This document shows positions 1 through 54,691 of a DNA stretch of 64,000 bases, piece after piece; the stretch's first letter is position 1; every line of letters starts with the position of its first letter. Source of the DNA: a virus. Below the pieces are notes generated by a model. The model was not told the origin of the DNA, did no database searches, and was given only the letters and a program-made list of their open reading frames with translations. Both the position numbers and the translations under genes were made by a program. The stretch covers positions 10,203 to 74,202 of the IMG/VR virus record IMGVR_UViG_3300047300_000501. One strand, written 5' to 3'.

Positions 1-600
1 ACACCGTATTCTTTCTCAACTACAACTTATGGAGTTAAGTGTATTTCTGGAAATACATTTATTAGACTTGCTCCAGGCAAAGGTATCGAACAAACAGATA
101 TTCTTACAGGTAAAAAATATCTTATGAATGATAATAATGAAATTATTGCAAAACAGGCAAAAGATATTCAGATTGGTGATGAAGTCATGACTGTTCAATA
201 TGCTGAAGTTGATCAGTCTTCCCCAGACTATGCAGTATTTGAGTGGAACTCTGACTCTCTTACATTTGTTTCAAATTCAACAACAACTATTACTGATATT
301 GAAGAATCCGCTAAGTTCCAAACAGTTTACATTAATGGCGACCAGTCAGCACAGTTTACTTTAGAACATCCAATTCTTACAAATAAAATCATTAATGGTG
401 TTCCTTCTTGGAAGTTTGCAATGGTAGCAGAACTTGAAGTAGGAGATATAATTGTTAAATATAACAATGAAACTGGACTATATAACAATGTAGAAATAAC
501 ATCATTAGACATAATGTCAAACTTAGACCCAGTTTATACCTTCAGTGCTGAGCCAGGTGATATAATTGTTGCAGGCGATATTATAACTCACAATAAGTAA
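1..600 (+). CDS. C-terminal part of Hint (intein-like/BIL) domain precursor, paralog of 10858..12216; truncated by left window edge
   Basis: Frame 1 is open from base 1: TPYSFSTTTYGVK-C(40..42)ISGNTFIRL...AKQAKDIQIGD...FTLEHP...VYTFSAEPGDIIVAGDIITHNK*. Motifs closely match 10858..12216. The 124 start in the ORF track is internal. Confidence 0.9.
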   Translation, partial: TPYSFSTTTYGVKCISGNTFIRLAPGKGIEQTDILTGKKYLMNDNNEIIAKQAKDIQIGDEVMTVQYAEVDQSSPDYAVFEWNSDSLTFVSNSTTTITDIEESAKFQTVYINGDQSAQFTLEHPILTNKIINGVPSWKFAMVAELEVGDIIVKYNNETGLYNNVEITSLDIMSNLDPVYTFSAEPGDIIVAGDIITHNK

Positions 601-822: not shown

Positions 823-908
823 TGATAAAGATATTTAAAAGTATAATGTTTAGGTACAAAGAAAAAAGAAAGTATAAAAATATTAAAAGATCTAATTGGA
901 TTTACTAA
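822..908 (+). CDS. 28-aa basic microprotein (not in ORF track)
   Basis: MIKIFKSIMFRYKEKRKYKNIKRSNWIY*; TAATG stop/start overlap with both neighbouring genes. Confidence 0.6.
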   Translation: MIKIFKSIMFRYKEKRKYKNIKRSNWIY

Positions 909-1837
909 TGCTATTTGATATTTTTAAAACTGGCATTATTCCACATAATAGACCAGAAACAAAAGACAAGACAAGCGTACTTGTTACGCATGCAGAAATA
1001 GATAGGCCAGAGTACAGTTATGACTGGAATTCAGATGGCATTAGGTCTGTTGAATTTAGCACAAAGCCAAGTATTGTTGCTTTAGGATGCTCGATTACTT
1101 TGGGTCAGGGTCTTCCAGTAGAACTCAGGTGGACAGAACTTTTAGCAAAAAAACTAAACAAAACAGTAGGAAATATATCTTATAGTGGTGGATCTGCAGC
1201 ACAAGTTATTTCTAGTTTTTTTGGAATGATCGACAAATATAATTATAAGCCAGAATATGTTATTGCTAACCTTCCGCCATTTGAAAGATTTTATTTTATT
1301 GACGGTAAAGGTGAAAAAATGAAAGACTATTGGTTAGGTAATAAGCCTAGAAAAACAAAAGATCAGGCTCCTTGGGATTATGGTGCAACAATCCCATACG
1401 AGTGGGTTTATTATAATAATCTAAACCATATCAAGATGTTAGAAGTTTTTTGCAAAGCAAATGATATTAAGTTAATTTGGTCAACCTGGAGCAATGCGTT
1501 GTCTCAAGAACACGAGTCATTTTTGTTAGATAATTTTGAAGGATATGTTGTAGATACTGTTAAAAAGCAGTTTCCACCACACTTTGAGTTTTATGTTAAT
1601 CCAAAAGAAGTTGATGGGCTTTTACCATTTTATAAAATGAATAATTGGGATAATATAAAATGTCATATTAAAGAAAGCCTAGACACCCCTGACATTTTTG
1701 ATTATGCTTATGATTATCATAAAATAGGCAGGGCACCAGATAGAGATGTGACCAGAACACCACATCCAGGTGTGCATAAACATATACATTGGGCAGAGTT
1801 TTACTTTGATATAATTAAATCTATGGAGACAGAATAA
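908..1837 (+). CDS. SGNH/GDSL-like hydrolase or acyltransferase
   Basis: Block I-like ALGCSITLGQG, NISYSGGS, C-terminal PHPGVHKHIHWAE; start 908 is coupled to the upstream stop. Confidence 0.6.
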   Translation: MLFDIFKTGIIPHNRPETKDKTSVLVTHAEIDRPEYSYDWNSDGIRSVEFSTKPSIVALGCSITLGQGLPVELRWTELLAKKLNKTVGNISYSGGSAAQVISSFFGMIDKYNYKPEYVIANLPPFERFYFIDGKGEKMKDYWLGNKPRKTKDQAPWDYGATIPYEWVYYNNLNHIKMLEVFCKANDIKLIWSTWSNALSQEHESFLLDNFEGYVVDTVKKQFPPHFEFYVNPKEVDGLLPFYKMNNWDNIKCHIKESLDTPDIFDYAYDYHKIGRAPDRDVTRTPHPGVHKHIHWAEFYFDIIKSMETE

Positions 1838-2430
1838 TGGATAGGATTGAGTTGGCACCTGGAATTATGTCTTATAAAAAAGTCATAAATCAAGAAACCC
1901 CATTAGACAAACAGATAGAGTTTGCAATGAGTAAAATTGGTTTAAACTGGGAGCCAGCATATGTAAGGACAAATGGTGAAAATATGATAGATAAGAGTGC
2001 TAGGGATACAGGTAGTTTCTTTATCAACTCCTACGACCATCTTATTGACAATCACTCAACACCAATAGACTCCTTTTTTACATTATTATCTAATTTATTT
2101 TTAAATAAGTTTAAACCAATACATGAGGATTATAAGAATTATTATCAAATATCTACAAAAACACAAGAGGCTTATAGTATTCTAAAATATGGAATTGGTC
2201 AAAATTTTATTAATCATATAGACGATCTAGATAACACGAGAAAAATTTCTATGGTTTATTATATAAATGATGAATACACTGGGGGAGAAATTGTTTTTCC
2301 TAGGTTTGGTTTAAACTATAAGCCACAAGCAGATGAAATGATTATGTTTCCTTCTACATACGTCTACAATCACTCAGTTCTTCCTGTGGTTGAAGGAAAC
2401 AGGTATGCTGTAGTTAGTTGGTTAAGATGA
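1837..2430 (+). CDS. 2OG-Fe(II) oxygenase, prolyl 4-hydroxylase-like
   Basis: HID, RKISMVYYINDEYTGGEIVF, FPS.Y.YNHSVLPV..GNRYAVVSW (HxD...H...R). Confidence 0.9.
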   Translation: MDRIELAPGIMSYKKVINQETPLDKQIEFAMSKIGLNWEPAYVRTNGENMIDKSARDTGSFFINSYDHLIDNHSTPIDSFFTLLSNLFLNKFKPIHEDYKNYYQISTKTQEAYSILKYGIGQNFINHIDDLDNTRKISMVYYINDEYTGGEIVFPRFGLNYKPQADEMIMFPSTYVYNHSVLPVVEGNRYAVVSWLR

Positions 2431-4049
2431 TAGATACTTTATCTTGTCGCTCAATTCATCAAGAAAAGTTTTTAGATTATGAATTTGATACTGTATGTAT
2501 TAATAACTTTACTATAAAAAATGATGATGGACCAATAATAAATGTACCTGGAGAAACTTATTTGTTTCATACAGATGCTGCCTTTGGTCACTCATTAATG
2601 GATATTTATGCACAGTTTAAAATTTTACAGTTAAAATATAAAAAGATAAAGCCATTTTTTTATGAAACACATGATAGAAGATTTAATCAAAATAAAATAA
2701 CAATAGATCAAATGAGTTCTCTTGGATATGAAAATCCAACGGTTTTCAATATTTCAGTTGGAAATTATTCTTTTGAAAAAGTTATAATGTTTTTTGATAT
2801 GAATCTTACATTTCCACAAGAGTTTTACTCAAACAACGGTGCTACAAGATCACTGTTCTATTTTCCTTTTTGTGACTGTCCAGTGGGATCATTACCATCT
2901 AATCTACCGTGTGGCCAAAGTGAGCACTTTAAGTATAACTACTTAGCAATAGATATTCTAAAGCAAAGTTTTAAAGAATTTTTTAGTGATAGTAAAACAG
3001 AAAATATTTTTGTTTCAAGAGAAAGATATAATAAAAGACATAAGGAGCAAATTGAACTTTATTCCAATAAAGAGTCTTTATCAGACAAAGAGAAGGAATG
3101 GTATTGGTTTGCTAAATGGAGATATTCTGAAAAAGATGAGTACATACAACAAATGTTTAAAGACAGCGGGTATACCATTATCTACCCAGAAGATCATAGC
3201 CTAATAGAACAAATAAAGATATTTAGTTCTGCAAAAAATATTGCAGGGCTTTCTGGCACTTGGTTGTTTAATTCTTTTTGGGGAAACAAAGAAACTAATG
3301 TGTTTGAAATTTCAGCAGTTCCAAATCACAGATATCATTATAAACAGTTTGCAGACTATGCTGGGGTAAATCATTCTTATATTAATGTTGTTGGATTGTC
3401 AGAAGAAGAAACAAAAACCGTCATTCAGGAAAGTATTGATAAAATGCATAAAGATACCTCACCAATTATAGTTCCAGTAATTAATTTTGACCTTATTCAG
3501 CAAGCAATTGATGAAAAGAGAATTCATATATTTAAAAATGTTTTTCCAAAATTGCCATCATTGGATTCAATCATGTCTATGGTTTCTCAGTTTGTTGATG
3601 AAGACCTAGAAAAATTTCCAGATAGATCATATCTGTTAAGTGATTTTGTTGAAGGTGAGTCTTCTGATATGAGGCTTAAGTGTAGATTTTGGTCAAGGCT
3701 TGCACTTCAACTTTACGATCCAGAAGATAAATATTTATCAATTATTCCAGAACTGCTTCCAGTAACTGAATGGGGCCTTTCTCAATATTCCGCAGAAGTC
3801 TATGATGGAAACTTTGCACTAGTCTCACTTATGAAGAACCGTGGGGTAGTTGGAAGTAAACATAGCGACTATGTAGATCAATTTCAGTGGGTAGTTAAGG
3901 GAGAGATGATCTGGCGCACAGGTGAAACTCTAGAAAACGAGTATCATGTTGTAGAGGGTGACTTTATCTTTATACCAAAAAACTTGGTTCATGAGGTTGA
4001 AACCATCAAGGCACCAAGAGTAGCAATTAATTTAATTTTAAGAAACTAA
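2427..4049 (+). CDS. GT61 (DUF563)-like glycosyltransferase fused to C-terminal JmjC/cupin hydroxylase
   Basis: N-part: FGHSLMD, IFVSRER, PEDHSLIEQIKIFSSAKNIAGLSG..LFN. C-part: KHSDYVDQFQWVVKGEMIWR...GDFIFIPKNLVHEVET. ATGA overlap at 2427. Confidence 0.75.
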   Translation: MIDTLSCRSIHQEKFLDYEFDTVCINNFTIKNDDGPIINVPGETYLFHTDAAFGHSLMDIYAQFKILQLKYKKIKPFFYETHDRRFNQNKITIDQMSSLGYENPTVFNISVGNYSFEKVIMFFDMNLTFPQEFYSNNGATRSLFYFPFCDCPVGSLPSNLPCGQSEHFKYNYLAIDILKQSFKEFFSDSKTENIFVSRERYNKRHKEQIELYSNKESLSDKEKEWYWFAKWRYSEKDEYIQQMFKDSGYTIIYPEDHSLIEQIKIFSSAKNIAGLSGTWLFNSFWGNKETNVFEISAVPNHRYHYKQFADYAGVNHSYINVVGLSEEETKTVIQESIDKMHKDTSPIIVPVINFDLIQQAIDEKRIHIFKNVFPKLPSLDSIMSMVSQFVDEDLEKFPDRSYLLSDFVEGESSDMRLKCRFWSRLALQLYDPEDKYLSIIPELLPVTEWGLSQYSAEVYDGNFALVSLMKNRGVVGSKHSDYVDQFQWVVKGEMIWRTGETLENEYHVVEGDFIFIPKNLVHEVETIKAPRVAINLILRN

Positions 4050-9004: not shown

Positions 9005-10834
9005 ATGGCAACTAGAATGCAACAACGCAGAGGTACTGCACAGCAATGGACTGACGCAGACCCAATTTTGGCAGCAGGAGAAATTGGATTTGAAACAGAT
9101 ACCAACCAGTTTAAGATTGGTGATGGCGTAAATGCATGGTCAGATCTCTCCTATTTTAAGAACTTAGAAGATCTTGGCGGATCTTTAGATGACTATGTTC
9201 CAGTTAGCACAAAGGGTCAAGCAAACGGTGTAGCCGAACTTGATTCAACAGGAAACGTTCCAATGTCTCAACTTGGAAACATTATTGATGGTGCACCAGC
9301 AGCACTTGACACACTCAACGAAATCTCAACACTTCTTGGTGATGGGTCAAGCCTTGGAGCATCAGTAGTTTCATCTTTAAACGCACTTGATACAGCGCTT
9401 GCAAACCACGCAGACAATACAAGCACTGCTCATGGAATGGTGATTGCAGACCTCGCAACACATACTTATGTAGCCGATGCAATAACAACACATGCGTCAG
9501 ATACTACAGGTGTACACGGTATTGCAGATATGTCTGCACTAGCAACATCAGAGTATGTTGGTGATACAGTTGGAGCACACAACCTAGATACAACACAGGT
9601 GCACGGAATTGAAGATACAGCAGAACTTGCTACAAAAACATATGCAAATAATGCAGTGTCAACACACCAAGCAGATACAACAAATGTTCACGGTATTGCA
9701 GATACATCTGCTCTTGCACTATCTGTAGATGTAACATCTGAAATTGCAGCACACTCTGCAGATACAACAGATGTTCATGGAATTACAGATACAGCAAACC
9801 TTGTCTATACATCTGACTCACGCCTTTCAGATGAAAGAACCCCTTCTGCGGGTTCTGTAACAGCAGCAAAGATTGCAGCAGATGCAGTAGAAACAGCAAA
9901 GATTGCTGACGGTGCAGTAACAAATGCAAAACTTGCAGATGATGCAGTAGATACTTTAGAAATCAAAGATTTAGCAGTTACAAATGCTAAGTTAGCAGGA
10001 TCAATTGCACAGTCTAAGATTACTAATCTAGAGACAGACATTGCTTCAAAGCAAGACAAGGTAACTGGAGTTTCAGATACTGAGATTGGGTACCTTGATG
10101 GAGTTACATCAGCAATCCAGACACAGATCAATGGAAAGGCTTCTCTTTCTGGAGCAACCTTTACAGGTGATGTTACAGTTGAAACCAACCTTACAGTTGA
10201 TGGAAACCTTACAGTAACAGGAACAACTACAACAGTTTCTGCACAAGATCTTGTTGTGTCTGACCCACTGATCTATATCGGTGAAGGAAATACAGCAAAC
10301 CTTGTTGACCTAGGTCTTGTATCATCTTTCAACGATGGAACCTACCAGCATGCAGGTATTGCTCGTGATGCTTCTGCTGGAAAGTGGAAGATCTTTAAGG
10401 GTGTAACTGATGAACCAACAACTACAATTAACTTTACACAGGGATCACTTGATGACCTTGCAGTTGGTGCTCTTGAGGCAACAACAGTTACTCCATCTTC
10501 TGGAATAGTTTTCTCAGATGGCACACAAACAAAGGTTGGAGTTCCATCTATAACAACTTTTGCAACAGCAATTTCTTCTAGCGCAACACTTGCAACAGGA
10601 GAGCAGGATAAGTTTGTTCCACTAACTGGAGCAGTTACAATCACTCTTCCTGCAACAGGATACTCTACTGGGCAGTCAATTGACTTCTATCAGGCTTCAG
10701 GTACTGGTGCACAGTTTGCTTCAACCAACAGCGTTGTAGGCACACCAGGACTAAAGTTCAGAACTACAAACTCAGTAGTAACAGCAATGAAGACTCCAAC
10801 TGGATGGTTAGTCTTCGGAGATTTGTCAGCATAA
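9005..10834 (+). CDS. tail fibre protein with Mtd_N/hyaluronidase-type N-terminal domain
   Basis: MQQRRGTAQQWT...ILAAGEIGFETDT..FKIGDG; GAPAALDTLNEI; His repeats; AVT.AK[IL]A repeats; C-terminal WLVFGDL. Confidence 0.8.
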   Translation: MATRMQQRRGTAQQWTDADPILAAGEIGFETDTNQFKIGDGVNAWSDLSYFKNLEDLGGSLDDYVPVSTKGQANGVAELDSTGNVPMSQLGNIIDGAPAALDTLNEISTLLGDGSSLGASVVSSLNALDTALANHADNTSTAHGMVIADLATHTYVADAITTHASDTTGVHGIADMSALATSEYVGDTVGAHNLDTTQVHGIEDTAELATKTYANNAVSTHQADTTNVHGIADTSALALSVDVTSEIAAHSADTTDVHGITDTANLVYTSDSRLSDERTPSAGSVTAAKIAADAVETAKIADGAVTNAKLADDAVDTLEIKDLAVTNAKLAGSIAQSKITNLETDIASKQDKVTGVSDTEIGYLDGVTSAIQTQINGKASLSGATFTGDVTVETNLTVDGNLTVTGTTTTVSAQDLVVSDPLIYIGEGNTANLVDLGLVSSFNDGTYQHAGIARDASAGKWKIFKGVTDEPTTTINFTQGSLDDLAVGALEATTVTPSSGIVFSDGTQTKVGVPSITTFATAISSSATLATGEQDKFVPLTGAVTITLPATGYSTGQSIDFYQASGTGAQFASTNSVVGTPGLKFRTTNSVVTAMKTPTGWLVFGDLSA

Positions 10835-10857: not shown

Positions 10858-12216
10858 ATGTCAAAACAAGCAGGTAGAATGAGCCAGGGAGCAAATGACT
10901 TCTTGGCACCGTACGCTCCAACAATTGGAACAGCAACCAACGTTCCAGCAGGAAGAGCATACAACAATGGACGGGTAGATGTAACATTTACTCCTGACCC
11001 AATCAATGCAGCAACATCATTTACTGTGACATCTTCTCCTGGAGGTTATACTGCAACTGGTGCTTCTTCTCCAATTTCAGTTACAGGTTTACAATCATCA
11101 GTGGCTTATACATTTACTGTTACAGCAACTAATGACGCAGGAACCTCAGCACCGTCTGCAGCATCAAATAGCGTTACAGCGACAACAGTCCCTGCAACAC
11201 CAACTGCACCAAGTGCTTCTTCTCCGTCAGCAGGTGTAGACTCAGTTTCATGGTCTGCACCAGCAGATGGTGGATCAGCGATTACAAATTACCACTGGGA
11301 ATCAAATGACTCAAAGTCAGGAGATACAGCATCTACATCAGTAAGCGTTGGACAGGAGCAGGGTACAGCACAGGCTTATCGTGTTTATGCAACAAATGCT
11401 AATGGTAACTCAGAATACTCTTCATACTCTGGAACAGTAACTACAACATTTTCATTTGTTCCATTTGGCGTGTTTGGTTTCTCACCATTTGGTTTCTCAC
11501 CATTTGGTTTTTCACCATTCTCATTCTCTCCATTTGGGTTCTCTCCGTTTGGGTTTTCTCCGTTCTCATTCTCACCATTTGGTTTCTCACCGTTCTCATT
11601 CTCACCATTTGGATTTTCTCCTTATGGATTCTCTACAACAACATACGGTGTAAAGTGTATTGATGCTAATACATTTATTAGAGTAAAGACTGGACTTGGT
11701 GTCGAGTCTACTGATCCAGAAACTGGCAAGGTAACTCTTAAAGATGCATCAGGACAAGTAGTTGCTAAGCAAGCAAAAGATATTCAGGTTGGAGATACAG
11801 TTCTTTCAGCAGACTATGCCGAAATTGACCCATCATCTCCAGATTACGAAGTCTTTAACTGGTCTTCTAACTCACTATCTTTTATTAATCACTCAGAAAC
11901 CACAATTACTGACATTGAAGAAACAAATAAGATTCAAACTATTTACTTCAATGGTGATCAATCAGCACAGTTTACATTAGAGCACCCAGTTCTAATTAAG
12001 AGAAATACTGCTGGAGCAATTAGTTATGGTTTTGCTATGGTTGCAGAAGTTCAGGTTGGAGATGCTATTCTAAAGTATAGCCCAACATCAAACTCATATA
12101 TTGAGACAGATATTACATCTATCGACATATCTTCTGGACAAAAGGTAGTCTATACTTTTAGCGCAGAACCAGCAGATCTTATTATTGCTGGTGACATCGT
12201 TACTCACAATAAGTAG
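10858..12216 (+). CDS. FN3-domain protein with (FSPF[G/S])x10 array and C-terminal Hint domain
   Basis: Two FN3-like units (VTGLQSSVAYTFTVTATN.AG.S; VSWSAPADGGSAITNY...YRVYATNANGNS), the repeat array, then K|C(11656)IDANTFI...TLEHP...DIVTHNK*. Confidence 0.9.
   Translation: MSKQAGRMSQGANDFLAPYAPTIGTATNVPAGRAYNNGRVDVTFTPDPINAATSFTVTSSPGGYTATGASSPISVTGLQSSVAYTFTVTATNDAGTSAPSAASNSVTATTVPATPTAPSASSPSAGVDSVSWSAPADGGSAITNYHWESNDSKSGDTASTSVSVGQEQGTAQAYRVYATNANGNSEYSSYSGTVTTTFSFVPFGVFGFSPFGFSPFGFSPFSFSPFGFSPFGFSPFSFSPFGFSPFSFSPFGFSPYGFSTTTYGVKCIDANTFIRVKTGLGVESTDPETGKVTLKDASGQVVAKQAKDIQVGDTVLSADYAEIDPSSPDYEVFNWSSNSLSFINHSETTITDIEETNKIQTIYFNGDQSAQFTLEHPVLIKRNTAGAISYGFAMVAEVQVGDAILKYSPTSNSYIETDITSIDISSGQKVVYTFSAEPADLIIAGDIVTHNK
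11479..11628 (+). repeat. 10 x 15-bp coding tandem repeat, FSP[F/Y][G/S]
   Basis: FSPFG FSPFG FSPFS FSPFG FSPFG FSPFS FSPFG FSPFS FSPFG FSPYG, with synonymous codon variation; degenerate FVPFG at 11455. Confidence 0.95.
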
Positions 12217-12221
12217 CGTGT

Positions 12222-12893
12222 ATGCGTGGGGACAGACATCCTAAGCCATCTGAATTTTGGCTAAGCACTTATGACATGTCTTTTTCAGACATTGTTAATA
12301 AAAGTAACTGCAATCGGTTATTTGTAGAGTATCAGCATGTATTAAAAAACGATGCTGTAAAAAACTCTATACTAAAGCCAGTAAATGACTACGCTTATAA
12401 TTTATATCCTGCGCCAGAGTTTCTTAAGTATGAGGATGGATATGTATATTTAAGGCAGAGAACGCATGCAGAGATATGGGTCAAACTAGATTATACTCTA
12501 GGTGTTTATTTTTTAGACAGACCACATATTAGGCAGTTTTATTGTTCAGATAAAATACTTAAAGCAGATAATACATTTTTATCTACATACAGATTTTATA
12601 ACCCATGGTTTTTTGACCTTAACAGAGAGTATGAAATAGTTGCTGTACATGATGAATTTACCCCCTTTGTAATAGAAGAGTTAGTTGTGCCAATTTTCAA
12701 CACTAATGTCACTATCCTTGAGCCAAATTTTACTCATTTTTTGTTTAAAAAGAGCGGGGACCATATGCTGGATCCAACTCATGGTAAAATTAGTATAGGA
12801 ACTCCTATGTATGACATGAAGATAAAAGTAAATGACAAGGAACTTAAGTCATTAAAAGATTTTTATTCAACATATAAGTTTCACAGATTCTAA
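12222..12893 (+). CDS. hypothetical protein, divergent relative of the two following genes
   Basis: RFYNPWFF and GKISIGTPMYDMKI echo INPMWSV and GIIEKGTPIAQVIP of 12908. Confidence 0.5.
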   Translation: MRGDRHPKPSEFWLSTYDMSFSDIVNKSNCNRLFVEYQHVLKNDAVKNSILKPVNDYAYNLYPAPEFLKYEDGYVYLRQRTHAEIWVKLDYTLGVYFLDRPHIRQFYCSDKILKADNTFLSTYRFYNPWFFDLNREYEIVAVHDEFTPFVIEELVVPIFNTNVTILEPNFTHFLFKKSGDHMLDPTHGKISIGTPMYDMKIKVNDKELKSLKDFYSTYKFHRF

Positions 12894-12907
12894 AGAAAAG
12901 GAAGAGT

Positions 12908-13627
12908 ATGCCAAACATAGAGTTTCACCCTTGGAGCGACGACGCTGAAGGTTTGATTGATAAGCCTACGCCAACACATAGAAATGTTCCAGAGTGGTAC
13001 AGAAAGCAACCAGCATACGTAAACAAAGAAGATTTTCTTAAAAAGGGTATTTCTGGTTCAACAATAAAGAAGTGTATGCCAGTCTTTGATGCTATGACAG
13101 CGGGGTATACTTTGTATTGTCCACTAGATATTTATGTAGATGCAACAGATCCAAATAAATTAGAGTATAACATCCCTATAGCCGTTGCTGGCTTTAAAAA
13201 AGAATTGTTTACCACACACTCACCAGAGCAAACTACTCACTATCCAATGCCGTCATATGTTCATAAGGATGTTCTTAGAATTAATCCAATGTGGTCAGTT
13301 AAAACATCTCCTGGCTATAGTTCATTGTTTATTAAGCCAATGCATCAAGAGCATCAGCCTTTTGAATTAGTACCAGGAATTATTGATACAGATACCTATG
13401 TTAGTGAAGGGTTCTTATCTTTTAAGATTGAGAGTAGTTTTAAAGGCATAATTGAAAAAGGAACACCTATTGCTCAAGTCATTCCATTCAAAAGAGAGAA
13501 TTGGCAAAGTCAACATATAGAATATAAAGATTCTAAAGAGGGTCAGAAAAAGCAAAGAATGCTCGTGAGAAGTAAGTTTTTTAATTATTATAAGAAAAAC
13601 TTTTGGCACAAAAAGGAATGGCATTGA
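12908..13627 (+). CDS. DUF6065-related / dUTPase-like-fold protein
   Basis: PEWYR, TIKKCMPVFDAMTAGY, W.VKTSPGYSSLF..P, PGIIDTD, KGTPIAQVIPFKRE.W. Confidence 0.55.
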   Translation: MPNIEFHPWSDDAEGLIDKPTPTHRNVPEWYRKQPAYVNKEDFLKKGISGSTIKKCMPVFDAMTAGYTLYCPLDIYVDATDPNKLEYNIPIAVAGFKKELFTTHSPEQTTHYPMPSYVHKDVLRINPMWSVKTSPGYSSLFIKPMHQEHQPFELVPGIIDTDTYVSEGFLSFKIESSFKGIIEKGTPIAQVIPFKRENWQSQHIEYKDSKEGQKKQRMLVRSKFFNYYKKNFWHKKEWH

Positions 13628-14355
13628 GTAAAAAGATAAAGTTTCATCCAACATCTTTAGAGATGTATGATAATTTTGACATACTTCATCCTGAACCAGC
13701 AATCAAACACATACCTGAATGGTATAAGGATTTAGCCCAACATTATGATACAAATAATGTAGAGTTTTTAAACCCAGTGAATGATCGTGGAACAGATGGT
13801 GCCAATGTTTCTACTAAAATGTGCTATCCATTTAGAGATGCTATGACTGCTGGGTACGTTTATCGATTAACCCAAGACATAGAGGTTACATTGAGTCCAG
13901 ATGGCAAACCAGAACTATCTTGGGAGTATGATTCCTTAATGATGCTTGACAAGAGGTATATCCTAGATATGGTTCCACCAGAGGGCTGCCACCCTGTTCA
14001 TTTTGGTCTAAGAATGCATTGGTATTATGAAACGCCACCAGGATACTCTGTTTTAATTACCCACCCAATGAATAGGTATGATCTGCCTTTTACAATTCCT
14101 TCAGGAATCATTGAGTCAGACCTGATGGGTATTCCAGTATTTCTATCATTTTTTCTAAAGAAGAATTTTATTGGTACAATCCCAAAGGGAACCCCACTAT
14201 TTCAAATAATACCTTTTAAAAGAGAAGACTGGGAGATGGAAGTAAGCCTAGACCCAGAAGAGATATTACAAAAAGAATACGACCTTGAAAATAGAAGAAC
14301 TAGATTATTTGCATACTATAAAAAGTTTGCATGGAGAAAGAAGAGTTACCTATAG
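13624..14355 (+). CDS. DUF6065-related protein, tandem paralog of 12908
   Basis: PEWYK, KMCYPFRDAMTAGY, ETPPGYSVLITHP, KGTPLFQIIPFKREDW; likely TTG start overlapping the upstream TGA. Confidence 0.55.
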   Translation: MSKKIKFHPTSLEMYDNFDILHPEPAIKHIPEWYKDLAQHYDTNNVEFLNPVNDRGTDGANVSTKMCYPFRDAMTAGYVYRLTQDIEVTLSPDGKPELSWEYDSLMMLDKRYILDMVPPEGCHPVHFGLRMHWYYETPPGYSVLITHPMNRYDLPFTIPSGIIESDLMGIPVFLSFFLKKNFIGTIPKGTPLFQIIPFKREDWEMEVSLDPEEILQKEYDLENRRTRLFAYYKKFAWRKKSYL

Positions 14356-14387
14356 TGTATAATAATAATATAGAAAAAGGAGCAAGC

Positions 14388-15011
14388 ATGAGAGAGCACA
14401 AATTCTTTGAAAGAATGCTAAATGCAGACACAGACCGTTTAGCGCATTACCTTGGTGAGCAATATCAAAAGATTGAAACACTAACTTTGCCAGGTATTCA
14501 GAAGTTAGGTCCAAATGAGGCATGGACAGAATCAGGAAGTTTATCTACAGTAAAGTGGAGAGAGTATAACGTCTTTCAATTTTTTCATCCAGATATTCAT
14601 AAACTATACAAGACAATTGGTGAAGTTGTTAGAGAGGCTTGTGAGTACTACCAGATTGATTTTGATTCACAAGAGTATATGGTTCAGGGATGGTTTAACA
14701 TTAACCATAAGAAGACTGGTAAGTTAGACTGGCACGATCATGGTGGGCCTTTTGCTCCACATTTTCATGGATTTTATTGCGTAAAGGCTGAGCCATCAAT
14801 TACTTACTATAGACTTTTTGGTGATCCAAACCGAGAGGTTGCAAATCACAATATTAATAATAGAATGATTGTTTCAGAAATGGGACACCCACATGCACAG
14901 GGTGACTGGGACTGGGATGGTCCAAGAGTGACTATTGCATATGACATTGTTCCTTTAAGATCTCTTGTCAATGTCGGCGCTTCAGAGCAGCATTGGATTC
15001 CATTATGCTAA
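14388..15011 (+). CDS. putative 2OG-Fe(II) oxygenase (HxH type, TIGR02466-like)
   Basis: GWFNIN, WHDH, FHGFYCV.AEPS.TYY, GHPH, PRVTIAYDI; SD aaggag before 14388. Confidence 0.65.
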   Translation: MREHKFFERMLNADTDRLAHYLGEQYQKIETLTLPGIQKLGPNEAWTESGSLSTVKWREYNVFQFFHPDIHKLYKTIGEVVREACEYYQIDFDSQEYMVQGWFNINHKKTGKLDWHDHGGPFAPHFHGFYCVKAEPSITYYRLFGDPNREVANHNINNRMIVSEMGHPHAQGDWDWDGPRVTIAYDIVPLRSLVNVGASEQHWIPLC

Positions 15012-15655
15012 CAGAAAAGAAACCACATAAGTTCTTTGAGCGATTTTTAGATAACGATGTAGAAGAGTTGTACGAGTATCTTGCAGATAAACAACAAGAT
15101 TTGCTTGAAGGAAAGGTTGGACAAATTCCACCAGAAGAACTAGCAAAGTACGATGAACATAATGGCGCAACAACACAATTAGGAATGCACTATAATGTTT
15201 TTGACTTTGACCATGTCGGAATCCGTAACCTTAAGGCTGCACTTGCAGATGCAGTAAAAGAAGCAAATGAGTACTACGGCGAAAACTTTGAAGAGAATGA
15301 TTATATGATTCATGGTTGGTATAACATGGATCCAAAAACACAAGGTAAAAAGGGTGTCAATCCTTTACAGAATGATGTGTTTTTTCATGACCATATGGGT
15401 GGAGAGGGTAGCCCTGTATTTCATGGGTACTACTGTGTAAATGCGGAACCATCAATCACTTACTATAAAATTGATGGTGTAACATTATTTGAAAATCATA
15501 ACAAGAATAACAGGGCTATTGTTTCAGAAACTGGTCATCCGCATGGAAGAGATGATTGGTTTGAAAATAAGCCAAGAATCACAATAGCCTACGACATAAT
15601 TCCTGCAAGAATGCTTGGAAATGTTGAGGGGCAAAATTGGCACAAACTGAAGTAA
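15005..15655 (+). CDS. putative 2OG-Fe(II) oxygenase, tandem paralog of 14388
   Basis: HKFFER.L, GWYNM, FHDH, FHGYYCVNAEPSITYY, GHPHG, PRITIAYDI. Confidence 0.65.
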   Translation: MLTEKKPHKFFERFLDNDVEELYEYLADKQQDLLEGKVGQIPPEELAKYDEHNGATTQLGMHYNVFDFDHVGIRNLKAALADAVKEANEYYGENFEENDYMIHGWYNMDPKTQGKKGVNPLQNDVFFHDHMGGEGSPVFHGYYCVNAEPSITYYKIDGVTLFENHNKNNRAIVSETGHPHGRDDWFENKPRITIAYDIIPARMLGNVEGQNWHKLK

Positions 15656-16512
15656 AACACGGTAAGATTCTTGTACATATCTACTCTTATAAAGAGAGAA
15701 ATCTTTTAGATTTTGTAGAAAGTATCATCAATAAAAGTTCTGGTATTAACGCTATTGACATATACGTAACTGATCAGAACAATCTTACAAGACTAAGACA
15801 ATTTGTTCCTTATAGCAATGTTAGGTATGACGTTGTTTGGTGGGATGAGTTTTTAAGTCCTAATATTTATATTCAAAAAACAATAAGCGAAAATGCCTAT
15901 AAGCAGTATGATTATGTATTACTATTAAAGCAACATGTTGAATTCAAGAATGGTTGGGATACAGATTTAGTTGGTCTGCTACCTGAAGATGGTGTTATTT
16001 CTGGCCAGGGCAAATTTAGACTATCTATAGATAAAAACTTTTATATCAAAAAGGATAAAAGAATATCTAGAGAACTTGTTAGTACTGGATTTATAGATAG
16101 AAACTTTATCTTTGCTAAATTTAAAGATATTAGAAATATTATATTTCCATATGAATTAAAGTACTATGGTGATGAAGAGTATCTCTCTATACAGTTTTTA
16201 AATAACGGTCTTGATATTTTTGCACTCCCAACAGATTACTACACTGTAATGTCTAAGCCAATTCATGAAAGAGGATACGTTCCATTTTCTCTAAACCATA
16301 ACTACAACGAAGTGGTCTCTTTACTTAAAGAGAACAGGACATCTAGGCTTCCATACAAAGATCCATCTAAATTCTTACAATTGATTGGTCTTGACCTAAC
16401 AAACTTACATAGGTTGCCGTTTGACTTCAATGATATTGAGTACGATAGATTTTCTAGTTTGGATAAAACTGGTGGCAAGAGATATATTGAAAGATTAAAC
16501 TCAGTATCATAA
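15637..16512 (+). CDS. GT-A glycosyltransferase, GT60 (hydroxyproline GlcNAc-transferase, Gnt1)-like
   Basis: ILVHIYSYKE (cf. IFVSIASYRD), KQHVEF..GWD (cf. DSH.RF...WD), YYGDEEYLS......G.DIFALP (cf. F.GEE.......G.D...P). Confidence 0.6.
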   Translation: MAQTEVKHGKILVHIYSYKERNLLDFVESIINKSSGINAIDIYVTDQNNLTRLRQFVPYSNVRYDVVWWDEFLSPNIYIQKTISENAYKQYDYVLLLKQHVEFKNGWDTDLVGLLPEDGVISGQGKFRLSIDKNFYIKKDKRISRELVSTGFIDRNFIFAKFKDIRNIIFPYELKYYGDEEYLSIQFLNNGLDIFALPTDYYTVMSKPIHERGYVPFSLNHNYNEVVSLLKENRTSRLPYKDPSKFLQLIGLDLTNLHRLPFDFNDIEYDRFSSLDKTGGKRYIERLNSVS

Positions 16513-18639: not shown

Positions 18640-19170
18640 ATGGAGGACTACGTGTCACAGATACATCACTTTAAGGCATTCATGAAGCCAGAAGATGCTG
18701 AAAAAATACATCAGCATGCTGTAAAGTTTAGTGATAGTTTTAATATGCATGGAAACAATGAAAAAGAATTTAAGGTCTACACCTATCATGAGATTGAAAA
18801 AGATGATAGACAAATTTTAGATCTTATGCAGTATTATGCCCTTAAGGTTTATAATCATGTAAAAGAAACATATGGTGGTCCATTCTTAGAATTCAATCCA
18901 CACAAAACACACTTTGCACGTTTTGAAGAGGGACACGGAATGCATAGTCACTACGATGCTTCTAGGCCAAATGATATTGCTACTGTTTTATATTTAAATA
19001 GTAACTACGATGGAGGAGAGATTTATTTTCCAGAGTATAACATAGAAATAAAGCCAGAGCCAGGAGATCTTCTATGTTTTCCAGATGAACCACACTTTGT
19101 TCATGGGGTAAAGCCAATTCTTAAGGGTACTAGATATACAACACCACGCTGGTTTCCACGCATAGTATGA
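18640..19170 (+). CDS. 2OG-Fe(II) oxygenase, prolyl 4-hydroxylase-like
   Basis: HSHYD, TVLYLNSNYDGGEIYFP, FVHGVKPI..GTRYT..RW. Confidence 0.9.
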   Translation: MEDYVSQIHHFKAFMKPEDAEKIHQHAVKFSDSFNMHGNNEKEFKVYTYHEIEKDDRQILDLMQYYALKVYNHVKETYGGPFLEFNPHKTHFARFEEGHGMHSHYDASRPNDIATVLYLNSNYDGGEIYFPEYNIEIKPEPGDLLCFPDEPHFVHGVKPILKGTRYTTPRWFPRIV

Positions 19171-32420: not shown

Positions 32421-35400
32421 ATGTCAGATGTTAATGCTAATATCAGCGTTAATATTGACACGTCTGCAGCCCTAGGTGAATTAAAAAATCTACAGCGACA
32501 GATCTCACTATTTCATAATCAAATAGCAAAATCGTCTGCATCAGCAGCGATAGCACAAAGAAACCTGCAGCAGGAATTTGTTAACTCAATTAATGCTACA
32601 GGTCAATTTGCTGCTCGTATGCAGACAATTAAAACATCTGCCGAATCATTTACCACATCGCTTGAGAAAAATAAGTTCTCAATGCGAGAGTACTTTAGAT
32701 ACGGGGTAGCCTCCTCTAAAAGTTTTGGTAAGGTATTTAAGACTGAGTTCGAAACAATCAATAAGGTTGCTGAAGAACGTGTAAGAAAACTACAGACACA
32801 ATATATCAAGATGGGCAGAGATGCCTCTGGAGCAATGAAGGCAATTGCCGTTACACCACTTGCTCTTGATATGGAAAATCTAGGAACAAAGACAATGATG
32901 GCTGCTCAAAAGCAGCAATTGTTTAATCAACTTCTTGCACAAGGAACAACAAACCTAGTTAACTTTGGTAAGAATACACAGTGGGCTGGTCGTCAGTTGA
33001 TGGTTGGTTTTACTATTCCATTAAGCATTTTTGGTTCTACTGCATCTAAGGTTTTCATGGATCTTGAAAAGCAGGTAATTAGATTTAAAAGAGTTTATGG
33101 AGACTTGTTCACATTACCATCTGAAACAGAAGCAAACCTAACAGTAATTAGAGGTCTTGCCTCAGAGTTTACTAAGTATGGTGTTGCGATTGCTGACACA
33201 ATGTCGATTGCTGCAGATGCAGCAGCAGCAGGTTTTTCTGGTAGAAAACTTGAAGAGCAAGTAAAGGCTGCAACTAAACTATCTATTCTTGGTGAAGTAG
33301 ATAAACAACAAGCATTATCAGCAACTATTGCAATGCAAACAGCATTCAAGATGAACAGCGACCAACTTGCAGAGTCTATTAACTTCCTTAACGCAGTTGA
33401 AAACCAATCTGTAGTAAGCCTTCAAAATTTAACAGATGCAATTCCTAGAGTAGCGCCAGTTATCCAAGGTCTTGGTGGAGATATCAAGGACATGTCCGTG
33501 TTCCTTGCAGCGATGCAAGAAGGTGGTGTTAATGCAGCAGAAGCAGCCAACGGTTTGAAGTCTGCTTTAGCATCTATCATTAATCCAAGCAAGGCAGCAA
33601 AAGAAATGCTTGCCAGTGTAAACATTGACCTCAACGCAATTACCACTCGAAACGAGGGTAACGTAATGAGAACAGTTCTAGATCTAGCAGATGCCATGAA
33701 GGAACTAACACCACTTGCAAGACAAAGAATTCTGGAACAACTATTTGGTAAGTTCCAGTTTGCAAGAGTATCAGCACTTTTTGATAACATTGCAAAGTCA
33801 GGATCTCAAGCAGCCAATGCCCTTGAACTTGCAAAAATGTCTTCACAAGATCTTGCAGCAATTGCAAACAAGGAATTAGGTGCAATTGAAGAAAATACAG
33901 TCACAAAGTTTAAGGCATCTATTGAAGCACTAAGAGAATCAATTGCTCCAGTTGGAGAATCATTCCTTAAGGTTGTAACCCCAATTATTGAACTTTTTAC
34001 AAAGGTTGCAGACAAATTTAATAATCTTTCTGATGGTACCAAGAAGGTTGTCACAACACTTGTTACCCTATTTGCTGGAGTTGGCCCTGTTGTCTTGATG
34101 TTAGTTGGTCTTATTGCTAACTTTGGTGGACAGATGCTCAAACTATTTGGTCTTATCCGTAATGGTTATTTAAGACTAAGTGGCCAATCAAAGTTTTTGG
34201 GAGAGCAAACCCAATATCTTACAAGTGAGCAGATGCAGGCAGAAGCAGTCGCACACTCGCTTGACCAGGTTCATGCTAGACTAACACAACGATTTACAGT
34301 TGAGGCAGATGCAGTTAATAATCTTCGCAATGCCTACTTGAGCGCTGCTGCAGCAAGCGAAAGATTTGCTTTTAATAACCCAGGAATGATGATTCCACAA
34401 TCTCGTCAACCAAAGAGATATGCAGAAGGTGGGGTTATTAGCGGTCCTGGAACAGGCACATCAGATTCTATAATTGCAAGGGTATCTAATGGAGAAGCAA
34501 TTATTCCAGCAGCATCTGTTGCAAGAAACCCAGACCTAGTCAATGCACTTGTATCAAATAATATTCCTGGTTTTGCTTCAGGTAAAAATCCAACAACTGG
34601 AACTGTACTTGGTGGCACATTTAGATCAAGACAATATTCTCCAGTTGCAATGATGGCTCCAGGAAATACTCCTGGTGGATTTGGAATGGACAGAGAATGG
34701 CTTCTAATGAACGAAGAGGCCAAGGCATCTTTTGCTGCATCTGTAAAGACAGCAATGATGATGGAACAAGGCATTCGTGCAACACAAGCAAATTATAGAA
34801 AGTTTGGCGAAAATCTTGCACCAACCCTCGATACCATTTTTGATATCTTTAAGCAAGGTGTCACAGATGATGTAACTAATATTTCACAAGTAGGACAAAC
34901 ACAGTATCCACTTATTATTCAAAGCCTGGAACAAATGGCTGCAAATGGACAACTTGCTGCATCAGATTTGAAGTCAATGTCTGTTGCTGTTAGAAAACTT
35001 TTAGCACCACTAGAAAGTGACTTGACACAGCAGAATATACAAAGAGTTGAACTTGCAGTAAATGATGCTGGAGAAAATTTTGTTAAGAGAGCGTCTACAG
35101 AAAGATTTGGATTAAGTTATAAGGATCAAATCAAGAAATCGTTTTCTTCAGAACTTGCAATGCGTGGAATAGCACAGCCAGCAGATTATCCTGGTTCTTA
35201 TCAGTTTGCTCATATTCCATATTCTGCACCAACAGAAAAATATGTAGAGCCATTCTTACGCAAGAAGGCAGGTGCTGGATCTGCAATTGAACAACAAGTT
35301 CTACAACAACTAAAGAATGGTGCAATATTTAAAGAAGGTCAAATCTTAATTGAGCAGCAGGCAATGCAGGTTGGACGTGTTGCAGTCGGAGCAGTTGCTA

Positions 35401-54375: not shown

Positions 54376-54691
54376 TGATTTAGCAATGGAACTACACAAG
54401 ACAGCAGTAACAAAAGGATTTTGGCCAGAGGTTGAGGATGTTGACGATATCTTTATTGCCAAACAGTGCATGATGATTGTTTCTGAGGTAACAGAGGTTA
54501 TGGAAGCAATTAGAAAAGATAAGGGAGAAGAAGAGATTACAAAAGAGGTAGCCGATATCCTCATCAGAACATTAGACCTATATGCTGGTTTAGTTGAGTC
54601 TGGCTACACAAAACTATCTCTTGACTATTCATTAGATGAAAAAACACAGTTTAATAAAACTAGACCAGAAAAGCATGGGGTAAGATTCTAA
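54368..54691 (+). CDS. MazG-like NTP pyrophosphohydrolase
   Basis: IVSEVTEVMEAIRK...EVADILIR..D. Confidence 0.8.
   Translation: MLDDLAMELHKTAVTKGFWPEVEDVDDIFIAKQCMMIVSEVTEVMEAIRKDKGEEEITKEVADILIRTLDLYAGLVESGYTKLSLDYSLDEKTQFNKTRPEKHGVRF

Follow-up and report, generated by a model that had tools for sequence, protein, structure and literature searches.

Type-A bacterial intein-like (BIL) domains, reviewed in PMC4031507 and exemplified by the BIL domain of Clostridium thermocellum (PDB 2LWY), are among the described systems closest to the phage protein analyzed here. Both belong to the Hint superfamily, use Cys or Ser as the nucleophile, carry TxxH in block B and have His-Asn at the domain end; neither is inserted in a conserved host protein, and cleavage rather than splicing is expected. 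Unlike BIL domains, the phage Hint stands at the end of its protein, with 0–17 residues after it (one Lys here), follows a low-complexity aromatic or proline repeat, has its gene within phage fibre modules, and belongs to a family with a large Ser1/terminal-Asp subclass. In Hedgehog/Hog proteins, too, a C-terminal Hint frees an N-terminal extracellular passenger via a thioester; the phage Hint, from a phage and not a eukaryote, is without the sterol-recognition region, and an adduct is not in evidence. The Peptidase S74 chaperone domains of phage tailspikes and fibres offer a functional analogy, as self-removing C-terminal pro-domains on an appendage, but their fold and chemistry are unrelated (a Ser-Lys dyad as opposed to the Hint thioester), and no S74 match was seen in the Pfam search of the locus.

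The modifying enzymes have precedents of their own. The prolyl 4-hydroxylase of chlorovirus PBCV-1 is described in PMC3634087 as acting on virus-encoded Pro-Ala-Pro-Lys repeats, that is, a virus-encoded 2OG/Fe protein hydroxylase has virus-encoded proline repeats as its substrate (a candidate substrate in our case). PBCV-1 infects eukaryotes and has only one such enzyme, whereas here several oxygenase families are each paired with their own repeat motif, in arrays of up to 7–9 paralogs and with a Hint cap. Mycobacteriophage virion glycosylation is attributed in PMC10568470 to Freeman et al. 2023. The likeness to the present locus is that transferases encoded by actinobacteriophages modify the virion proteins of these same phages. 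Reportedly they are all glycosyltransferases and their targets are the C-termini of capsid and tail-tube proteins, in a system without oxygenases, repeat arrays or Hint. The Skp1 prolyl hydroxylase with Gnt1 (GT60), and the plant hydroxyproline-rich glycoproteins, follow the hydroxylate-then-glycosylate logic that we propose for genes g5/g6 and g7 of this locus, and for a P4H-type gene and GT61 beside VTP tracts; the difference is that g7 is below the PF11397 cut-off and that hydroxyproline and sugar are here predicted only. No published description of a repeat-Hint-oxygenase system was found in the literature.

The window, a stretch of 64,000 nucleotides, comes from an uncultured lake phage, probably a long-tailed phage with a freshwater actinobacterium as its host; WhiB genes are above cut-off in all four of the fuller related genomes. 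The repeat-Hint gene (10858–12216, plus strand) encodes a precursor of 452 aa. Upstream of it the gene order is invariable (fibre, p151, fibre, repeat-Hint gene). Six packed genes follow at 12222–16512, separated by gaps of 5–14 nt or overlapping by 19–25 nt, and this g2–g7 cassette abuts a class II ribonucleotide reductase (RNR). ORF and domain analysis confirmed the layout given in a preliminary description of this DNA (FN3 domains, pentapeptides, TTTYGVK linker, terminal Hint, six genes), with the following features.

9005–10834, plus strand: fibre protein with an Mtd_N-type N-terminus, directly upstream of the repeat-Hint gene
10858–10935, plus strand: conserved N-terminus of the precursor (residues 1–26), a probable docking end, near-identical in at least 51 homologs
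10972–11448, plus strand: two FN3 domains (stalk), from Pfam fn3 and PDB titin FN3 matches
11449–11628, plus strand: Phe-rich low-complexity array, FSFVPF and 11 pentapeptide units; candidate hydroxylation substrate, from the covariation of repeat type and adjacent oxygenase family
11629–11655, plus strand: linker FSTTTYGVK, up to the predicted cleavage site K266/C267; identical in a paralog at the left edge of the window
11656–12216, plus strand: C-terminal Hint/bacterial-intein-like domain with Cys1, TLEH block B and HN, K and stop (profile, Pfam, residue conservation)
12222–12893, plus strand: g2, distant DUF6065-like paralog (hhalign to the g3/4 family)
12908–13627, plus strand: g3, phrog_7084/DUF6065-like, dUTPase-type fold (PHROG match, structure model)
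13603–14355, plus strand: g4, paralog of g3, 31% identical (phrog_7084 match)
14331–15011, plus strand: g5, Pfam-less 2OG/Fe oxygenase-fold protein (structure model, Foldseek, VIA, invariant columns)
14993–15655, plus strand: g6, paralog of g5, 43% identical (family alignment)
15637–16512, plus strand: g7, weak GT60-like (PF11397) glycosyltransferase candidate (sub-cut-off Pfam match)

The N-terminus of the precursor has a weak match to the minor tail protein phrog_6977. Pfam fn3 matches two stretches above cut-off (E 1.4e-8), and titin FN3 chains from the PDB match residues 74–191; the passenger domains of the family as a whole are FN3, PASTA (E 7.8e-9), Gly_rich_2 and Listeria-Bacteroides repeats. 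The array spans residues 198–257. Its 11 in-register 15-nt units (11464–11628; TRF period 15, 9–11 copies) are one FGVFG and the ten FSP[F/Y][G/S] pentapeptides already counted in the preliminary description. Recent slippage does not account for the array, because identical pentapeptides lie 1.67 nt apart on average in their codon use and third codon positions make up 62% of the differences between units.

The codon for the Hint Cys is exactly at 11656, where it had been placed, and the protein ends in THNK and a stop. A profile built from the C-terminal domains of 27 homologs matched PDB 2lwy ('bacterial intein-like domain') over its full length (E 2e-7), and mini-inteins as well. Eight of the 27 members match Pfam Intein_splicing (best 3e-6), and the Pfam matches of the others include Hint_2, PT-HINT or Hom_end_hint. 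Among the 122 representatives of full length, the first position holds Cys in 70 and Ser in 52, the block A Thr is found in 116, and all 122 have the block B Ser/Thr, 80 of them with its His. A His stands second-last in 95, and the final position holds Asn in 75 and Asp in 44. Judged by these residues the Hint domain is catalytically complete, with all that the N-S acyl shift calls for conserved across the family. The profile found 1002 cluster representatives at E<1e-10, and in nearly all of the best 150 of these matches the Hint was at the protein end. The stretch preceding it was aromatic-rich in 52 and Pro-rich in 24 of the 123 proteins with enough upstream sequence. In 38 of 134 homologs (~28%) there is no Hint and the protein ends directly after the repeat; such a bare-repeat end would be the product expected from cleavage, and plain removal of the Hint is thus favoured over ligation.

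For g5, the structure model (pLDDT 87) gave 3bvc (Z 16.5) and 2rg4 as the best fold matches in Foldseek and VIA, followed at Z of about 13–14 by PHD1/2, the RiPP hydroxylase ThoJ and the P4H of P. putida. The modeled fold of g5/g6 is that of a 2OG/Fe oxygenase, closest to protein prolyl hydroxylases. Residues H135, H137, H188, R199 and T201 (g5 numbering) are invariant in the g5/6 family; from the alignment, H135, H137, H188 and R199-x-T201 would fit the metal site and the 2OG site. Speaking against hydroxylation of the repeat, the motif is H-x-H, compared to the usual H-x-D/E, and no profile relation between g5/6 and the P4H-type family was seen. The proposal of two HxH-type Fe-dioxygenase paralogs is supported by the fold of g5 and by the identity of g6 to it.

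The repeat type and the oxygenase family were compared over 134 related viral loci. Of 38 loci with FxPFG repeats 37 have g5/6, and of 77 with FFPP, YFPP or FFSPPG repeats 74 have two or more P4H-type genes (median of 6 P4H-type genes per complete cassette); at FGA repeats the oxygenase is absent (14 of 14 loci). In phylogenetically independent contrasts, 8 of 9 went in the same direction and none in the opposite one (p about 0.008), and the pairing holds with a Cys-type, a Ser-type or an absent Hint between the partners. Counter-cases are a YNY-type locus that has g5/6 but no proline, and two YSF(T/V)P loci that have proline but no oxygenase. Because family and motif co-vary in this manner, whichever Hint type is present, the comparative evidence lends real support to the repeat array as the substrate of g5/g6. 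Joint transfer of adjacent repeat and enzymes as a block can, however, mimic a functional link. The pairing gives orphan phage enzymes a testable target.

Collectively, the sequences suggest the following scheme, which in its entirety we hold to have a somewhat better than even chance of being correct. The precursor would be a virion appendage protein, as its place after the fibre genes and the passenger domains of the family suggest, with a docking end, a stalk of two FN3 domains and a greasy Phe-Ser-Pro-Phe-Gly tail, made as a pro-protein. Its Hint would shift the K266-C267 peptide bond to a thioester, as the conserved catalytic residues indicate; the thioester would be resolved, most likely by water, the Hint would depart, and the mature protein would end in the repeat tail. 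On this tail g5 and g6 would act, and fold and covariation make hydroxylation of the proline in each F-S-P-F-G unit their most likely reaction; g7 may afterwards attach a sugar, a step for which the evidence is weak. Genes g2, g3 and g4 would be accessory proteins, which accompany most repeat classes without being bound to this position.

An unlikely reading that still carries some weight is that the precursor cleaves itself and the neighbouring enzymes are unrelated to it, the region being a hypervariable island flanked by the fibre genes and the ribonucleotide reductase and the covariation a result of block transfer. The targets would then be nucleotides or DNA, host or other virion glycans, or 2-oxoglutarate levels. 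The match of g3 and g4 to phrog_7084 is strong (E 7e-49 and 2e-37), that to DUF6065 below the Pfam cut-off. The g3 model (pLDDT 79) has a VIA Z of 10.4 to dUTPases, the g3/4 consensus, read by eye, holds recognizable counterparts of dUTPase motifs 1–4, and the g3/4 homolog of haloarchaeal virus HSTV-2 adjoins thymidylate synthase and DNA polymerase. From this fold and this neighbour, g3/4 may have a nucleotide role, for which the abutting class II RNR also speaks. For the 2OG oxygenases of cyanophages, DNA repair or 2OG balance has been proposed (PMC3037559). Moreover, in the fuller related genomes a g2-g3/4-g3/4-(g5/6)-g7 block lies near the terminase with two P4H-type genes, far from the repeat-Hint genes (a carbamoyltransferase is beside it in two genomes scanned with Pfam or by eye), and most homologous precursors are followed by g5/6 alone.

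From the position of this block, the link of g2, g3, g4 and g7 to the precursor is weak, and the six genes do not form one conserved precursor cassette as first thought. Of the three DUF6065/dUTPase-like paralogs g3 and g4 are clear, but g2, without a match in Pfam and PHROG searches, is only distantly related (hhalign probability 74%, E 3e-5), and the GT60-like identity of g7 is weak, since g7 itself scores 19 bits against the PF11397 cut-off of 21, although four of its eight relatives do match (best E 2e-6).

Against unrelated enzymes stand the tracking of motif by oxygenase family across all three Hint states, and the FGA repeats, which lack a hydroxylatable side chain and never adjoin an oxygenase. 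The companion enzymes are also of kinds that go with proteins or glycans (Asp/Asn beta-hydroxylase, sulfotransferase, GT61, carbamoyltransferase), and DUF6065 and g3/4 genes sit embedded within the P4H arrays.

The next alternative draws on the left-edge paralog.

1–600, plus strand: C-terminal part of the paralog, PASTA-(VTP)n-Cys-rich-Hint, whose gene starts before the window (identity to the precursor)

At full length (494 aa) the paralog has PASTA, three VTP tracts, Cys-rich segments and the Hint, with 60% identity to the precursor over the repeat end and Hint. The Hint thioester might be handed on to a different molecule (the upstream fibre through its C-terminal domain, some other protein of the virion, a glycan or the wall of the host, for example). 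The Hint would then serve as a one-shot ligase and the tail would be fixed covalently, as in Hedgehog-cholesterol. Because the paralog has no N-terminal docking domain, its PASTA binding head starting at residue 14, its C-terminus is a plausible attachment end. A C-terminal segment of ~70 residues is common to the proteins upstream of both Hint genes (32% identity, E 0.003) and in one locus (L033) is fused to a repeat region in a single chain, and the catalytic residues of the Hint are strictly kept. We nevertheless regard ligation as improbable: the Hint-less homologs imply that the thioester is dispensable, no acceptor was identified, and no sterol-recognition-like or adaptor region follows the Hint. 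A RiPP-like reading, also raised in the preliminary description, takes the array units as core peptides that would be modified and excised to give small bioactive peptides. It is highly implausible, for although short repeated units lie near tailoring-type enzymes and ThoJ is among the fold neighbours of g5, the array shares one chain with structural domains (FN3 or PASTA) within a fibre module, its units are without cleavage-site spacers or leader/core logic, and Pfam and PHROG showed neither a protease nor a transporter or recognition element among the neighbour genes. For the decoy role suggested alongside it, no evidence was found either.

Returning to the scheme of Hint removal and tail modification, the paralog, which has a PASTA head and carries VTP tracts, would follow it by means of an oxygenase of P4H type and a GT61. 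That this second precursor has its own enzymes, as had been described, was verified by two genes downstream of it.

1837–2430, plus strand: P4H-type 2OG-Fe(II) oxygenase of the left cassette (PF13640 E 5e-15)
2418–4049, plus strand: GT61 glycosyltransferase-cupin fusion of the left cassette (PF04577 E 5.5e-12; Cupin_2 E 2.8e-5)

VTP tracts are paired with a P4H-type gene and GT61 in four separate contexts.

The open reading frame at 10858–12216 encodes a 452-residue precursor whose layout agrees with that put forward in the preliminary description: a conserved N-terminus, two FN3 domains, a repeat array, a linker and, from a cysteine encoded at 11656, a terminal Hint domain. Six packed genes, g2 to g7, follow it on the same strand.

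10858–12216, plus strand, precursor (repeat-Hint gene)
12222–12893, plus strand, g2
12908–13627, plus strand, g3
13603–14355, plus strand, g4
14331–15011, plus strand, g5
14993–15655, plus strand, g6
15637–16512, plus strand, g7

The FN3 region scored 35.3 bits against the Pfam fn3 gathering cut-off of 25 and matched titin FN3 chains in the PDB. The Phe-rich array (11464–11628) comprises 11 units of 15 nt, ten of which read FSP[F/Y][G/S]; it leads through the linker FSTTTYGVK to the 186-residue C-terminal domain, which ends in His-Asn-Lys. Identical pentapeptides in the array differ on average by 1.7 nt, and third codon positions account for 62% of the differences between units. This synonymous type of divergence implies that conservation acts on the peptide and not on the DNA. 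Some related viral loci depart from this layout. The homologue in locus L034 (76–1899, 607 aa) carries two aromatic arrays with a Pro/Thr-rich and Cys-rich insert between them, resembling that of the PASTA-containing second Hint precursor at the left edge of the window, and the low-complexity parts therefore appear to shuffle as modules. In L015 (2329–3640) the homologue is split into two overlapping reading frames (252 and 262 aa) with the frame change inside the repeat tract; misassembly of the repeat, a disrupted gene or a frameshift site could each account for this. A C-terminal stretch of roughly 70 residues, closing with W..GDL(T/S)A, is common to the proteins encoded just upstream of both Hint genes (window 10630–10834; L002 400–615; 32% identity, E = 0.003). 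In L033 it is joined, within a single chain, to a Pro/Thr-rich, Cys-rich, aromatic-repeat region.

A profile built from 27 homologous C-terminal domains matched PDB 2lwy, a solved bacterial intein-like domain, over its full length (E = 2e-7), as well as the gp41-1, TFIIB and RadA mini-inteins. Eight of the 27 members match Pfam Intein_splicing (best E = 3e-6), the domain in the window itself reaching only E = 0.008; others match Hint_2, PT-HINT or Hom_end_hint. Together with the catalytic residues of the precursor, namely C267, the T-L-E-H of block B and the His-Asn before the final Lys, these matches uphold the earlier assignment of a terminal Hint domain. Across 122 full-length family representatives the nucleophile at position 1 is Cys in 70 and Ser in 52, the block A Thr is kept in 116, the Thr/Ser of the block B Thr/Ser-x-x-His motif is present in all and its His in 80, and His occupies the penultimate position in 95, with Asn (75) or Asp (44) at the last. 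A true splicing intein is ruled out, as the domain is terminal and not inserted, and His-Asn is followed by Lys and the stop codon in place of a Cys, Ser or Thr C-extein residue. A Hedgehog-type Hog domain is likewise rejected, since a single residue follows the Hint domain and no sterol-recognition or adduct-recruiting region is present. The lack of a nucleophile after Asn and of a sterol-recognition-like region thus identifies the domain, as judged from its sequence, as a predicted cleaving Hint of the BIL type; BIL domains (PMC4031507) are among the nearest described cases.

Searched against 1.8 billion cluster representatives, the Hint profile recovered 3633 (E < 1e-3), among them 1002 with E < 1e-10 and 133 with E < 1e-30, and nearly every one of the 150 best has the domain at its extreme C-terminus. 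The ten representatives that were sampled are all metagenomic, and those with a name are called "hypothetical protein". Among the 123 with enough upstream sequence, the stretch directly before the Hint domain is aromatic-rich and of low complexity in 52 and proline-rich in 24, with motifs that include FSPFG, FTPFG, FGAFGA, YFPPFFPP, FFAPPG, YSFTP, YYNPPPED, GFYHGF, VAPTP and IIATP. The passengers upstream of tail and Hint vary (FN3, PASTA, Gly_rich_2, Listeria-Bacteroides repeats, or nothing recognisable), so that a low-complexity tail and a terminal Hint, set on differing passengers, together constitute a movable module.

The products of g5 and g6 are 43% identical to each other. Neither has a match in Pfam, where the profile of the P4H-type family 2OG-FeII_Oxy_3 gave no hit, nor in PHROG functions or NCBIfam; the last returned nothing for ten proteins from both cassettes of the window. 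PDB profile searches with the g5/6 and g3/4 homologue families and with g7 gave no significant sequence match, and g5 and g3 are placed by fold comparison only. The model of g5 (pLDDT 87) is a double-stranded beta-helix (Foldseek E = 5e-6), whose closest folds (VIA, best first) are those of 3bvc (Z 16.5, 171 residues at rmsd 2.6) and 2rg4 (Z 15.9), both from bacterial proteins that are uncharacterised. At Z 13–14 follow PHD1/2 (Z 13.8), the P. putida P4H, the Trichoplax PHD and the RiPP hydroxylase ThoJ. This 2OG/Fe(II)-oxygenase fold supports the call of g5 and g6 as Fe-dioxygenases. Columns H135, H137, H188 and R199-x-T201 are invariant in the g5/6 family and D136 is nearly so, giving H-x-H instead of the usual H-x-D/E triad. 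The positions match strands of the model and would fit a putative metal site (H135/H137/H188) and a putative 2OG site (R199-x-T201). Metagenomes supply at least 1226 members of the family; neither a Pfam domain nor a functional name is attached to any of the 120 best listed, and hhalign found no relation to the phages' own P4H-type family (probability 0.5%).

Three scans of viral contigs yielded 147 related loci, of which 134 were usable, with 106 distinct N-termini; genes were called as longest reading frames and labelled by BLAST to clusters. The order is conserved as fibre, p151, fibre, repeat protein, variable cassette and RNR or its replacement. Within this frame, the repeat class is matched by the oxygenase family. 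The preliminary description had bound such precursors to neighbouring oxygenases. Of the 38 loci with FxPFG repeats, 37 have g5/6 genes (1–4 copies), and two or more P4H-type (PF13640) genes occur in 74 of the 77 with FFPP, YFPP, FFSPPG or HFPP repeats, with a median of six per complete cassette. FGA repeats go without: none of the 14 loci has an oxygenase, the only companion being a g3/4-type gene, which in some is joined by two small genes. The P4H arrays typically embed both a g3/4-like gene and a true DUF6065 gene; in some, a sulfotransferase and an Asp/Asn beta-hydroxylase are present as well. A smaller first set of loci gave the same repeat–oxygenase picture. The simple rule that proline entails an oxygenase is refuted by one YNY locus, which has g5/6 without proline, and by two YSF(T/V)P loci, which have proline and no oxygenase.

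Considering that many of the loci are close relatives, the argument rests on counts of independent pairs and not on these raw tallies. Followed on a tree built from the N-terminal sequence outside the repeat, the repeat class undergoes 15 changes. FxPFG repeats and g5/6 gave nine independent contrasts, eight in the same direction and none opposite (p ~0.008), and Pro-Pro repeats and P4H arrays gave four of five (p = 0.125). Pure hitch-hiking of one DNA block would be another way to produce such pairs. The pairing holds whichever Hint intervenes (FxPFG with g5/6: Cys-type 14, Ser-type 16, no Hint 7; Pro-Pro with P4H arrays: 38, 8 and 27, respectively), which argues against this explanation, with the adjacency of repeat and enzyme genes as a caveat.

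Thirty-eight of the 134 homologues, from both the FxPFG and the Pro-Pro classes, have no Hint domain and end right after the repeat. The simplest reading of these sequences is that the Hint domain is a removable cap and the bare repeat tail the working product. Given the observed architecture, conserved catalytic residues, folds and repeat–oxygenase covariation, the following order of events may be proposed. A pro-protein would be made first, and g5 and g6 would hydroxylate its repeat tail, most likely at Pro; addition of a sugar may follow. The Hint domain would then convert the K266–C267 bond to a thioester and leave. The mature protein would be anchored to the virion through its conserved N-terminus, so that the modified, sticky tail points outwards, and we speculate that, up to assembly, the cap maintains the solubility and accessibility of a greasy tail that is prone to aggregate. 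The rival to the removable cap is a Hint domain that ligates the tail. It belongs to a wider reading that we consider improbable, by which the phages that infect aquatic actinobacteria would possess a set of modular tools to write their appendages: motif-matched enzymes (prolyl and other hydroxylases, DUF6065 proteins, and sugar-, sulfo- and carbamoyl-transferases) would rewrite the tail, and the Hint thioester would ligate it to the fibre tip or the host wall. If true, a virus would be ligating proteins in the manner of Hedgehog, but the homologues that end in a bare repeat speak against a ligating role. A RiPP-like precursor, also suggested previously, is dismissed, as the array is fused to structural domains, no leader/core layout is seen, and neither a dedicated protease nor an element for recognition was found among the neighbours.

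Genes for 2OG/Fe oxygenases are numerous in aquatic phages and, as regards their substrates, have been orphans since the first cyanophage genomes; for cyanophages, published proposals invoke DNA repair or a control over 2-oxoglutarate (PMC3037559). Besides the BIL domains, the nearest described cases are the PBCV-1 prolyl 4-hydroxylase, which acts on Pro-Ala-Pro-Lys repeats (PMC3634087), and the glycosylation of mycobacteriophage virions (Freeman 2023, cited in PMC10568470). Our literature search found no paper on terminal Hint domains of phage fibre proteins or on repeat-matched oxygenase cassettes; the phage Hint domains it returned are inteins in terminase or reductase genes, not the architecture of the precursor. 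This locus and its ~130 relatives pair each oxygenase family with an adjacent encoded peptide motif and so offer a concrete and cheap test, in which synthetic peptides and recombinant enzymes should yield a specificity matrix. If the pairing holds, some "auxiliary metabolic genes" would be virion-tailoring genes, hydroxylation would join glycosylation as a known modification of phage virions, and the large unnamed terminal-Hint family (the 1002 representatives with E < 1e-10) would be assigned a function, that of capping sticky fibre tails in a removable way. These Hint domains, being small, naturally terminal and available in Cys and Ser versions, may also interest protein engineers.

The other cassette genes are less closely tied to the precursor. 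The preliminary description had grouped g2 to g7 into one cassette serving the precursor, a grouping that the relatives weaken. In three fuller related genomes, two of them complete, a block of g2, g3/4, a further g3/4 or g5/6, g7 and two P4H-type genes lies near the terminase, far from the repeat-Hint gene, which there retains only g5/6 or g3/4 with g5/6.

L063, 10063–16681, relocated block near the terminase
L065, 9–8478, relocated block near the terminase
L066, 6231–11854, relocated block near the terminase

In two of the three the block contains L313-like genes; a gene for 477–480 aa comes next, a carbamoyltransferase in L063 (Pfam E = 7.5e-54). We therefore regard g2, g3, g4 and g7 as a probable mobile block that happens to sit here; in the three relatives it looks like a mobile cassette for tailoring glycans or proteins.

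The claim of three DUF6065/dUTPase-fold-like paralogs held in part. Both g3 and g4 belong to phrog_7084, and their DUF6065 (PF19541) scores of 20.4 and 13.7 bits, below the gathering score of 26.6, do not place them in that family; g2 is only a distant relative of the two (hhalign probability 74%). The related u17 proteins of the Pro-Pro loci pass DUF6065 at E = 1e-30, a family not mentioned in any paper we found. The model of g3 (pLDDT 79) has a dUTPase-type fold (Z 10.4; Foldseek alone was marginal). Pfam dUTPase reached only E = 0.11 with g3/g4; by eye, the consensus shows counterparts of motifs 1–4 of the five dUTPase motifs, and a helix stands where the C-terminal, Gly-rich motif 5 would be. 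A nucleotide or nucleotide-sugar is a possible ligand. ESM Atlas returned only unnamed viral clusters for g3. Homologues of g3/4 (~30% identity) occur in the haloarchaeal myoviruses HF1, HF2 and the HRTV and HSTV series; in the Halorubrum virus HSTV-2 (L054, 6863–7732) a full-length one directly follows thymidylate synthase and DNA polymerase. As for g7, described as GT60-like, it scored 19 bits with PF11397 (GT60 GlcNAc transferase) against a cut-off of 21, over 31 residues only, so that membership is not supported; PF11397 is recognised in four of eight relatives (E = 2e-6 at best), which makes a distant relation to GT60 likely.

The left cassette shows a second pairing. A P4H-type gene and a GT61 gene come after (x)VTP-tract proteins in four separate contexts, which is not so for the upstream paralogs with aromatic tails. 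Two window genes, 1837–2430 and 18640–19170 (+), are members of Pfam 2OG-FeII_Oxy_3 (P4H type); the second directly follows the class II RNR, an RNR–oxygenase arrangement that most related loci retain irrespective of their repeat class. The reading frame at 2418–4049 (+) encodes 543 aa with a GT61 domain (E = 5.5e-12) and a C-terminal cupin (Cupin_2, E = 2.8e-5); GT61 genes in other loci are shorter (194–366 aa). The 313-residue protein at 896–1837 (+) has no family match, and its G-C-S-I-T-L-G-Q-G resembles, by eye, block I of SGNH/GDSL hydrolases; up to four paralogs adjoin a carbamoyltransferase gene in the related loci L064 and L065.

The window derives from a 74.2 kb IMG/VR viral record, estimated as 68% complete, and its G+C content varies from 31 to 45%. 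Its gene products include portal, head protease, capsid-type and minor tail proteins, and also a DnaB-type helicase, a class II ribonucleotide reductase and a large DNA polymerase. The tape measure protein (32421–39353, +) has 2310 aa, implying an unusually long tail, and with the portal, head and minor tail genes indicates a long-tailed phage. Among cultured phages (50,697 phage records) no match was found by blastn with the region or by tblastn with the precursor, and no such genes are reported for the two isolated Nanopelagicales phages (~39 kb). WhiB genes above the Pfam cut-off occur in all four fuller related genomes, a control search giving a signal in Corynebacterium only; none is present among ten small reading frames of the window, in a record of limited completeness. 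These WhiB genes and the PASTA domain with which the left-edge paralog begins (E = 7.8e-9) point to an actinobacterial host. We noticed no canonical dUTPase within the window; a MazG-type nucleotide pyrophosphohydrolase (54368–54691, +; E = 3.3e-5) is encoded directly 3' of the DNA polymerase gene.
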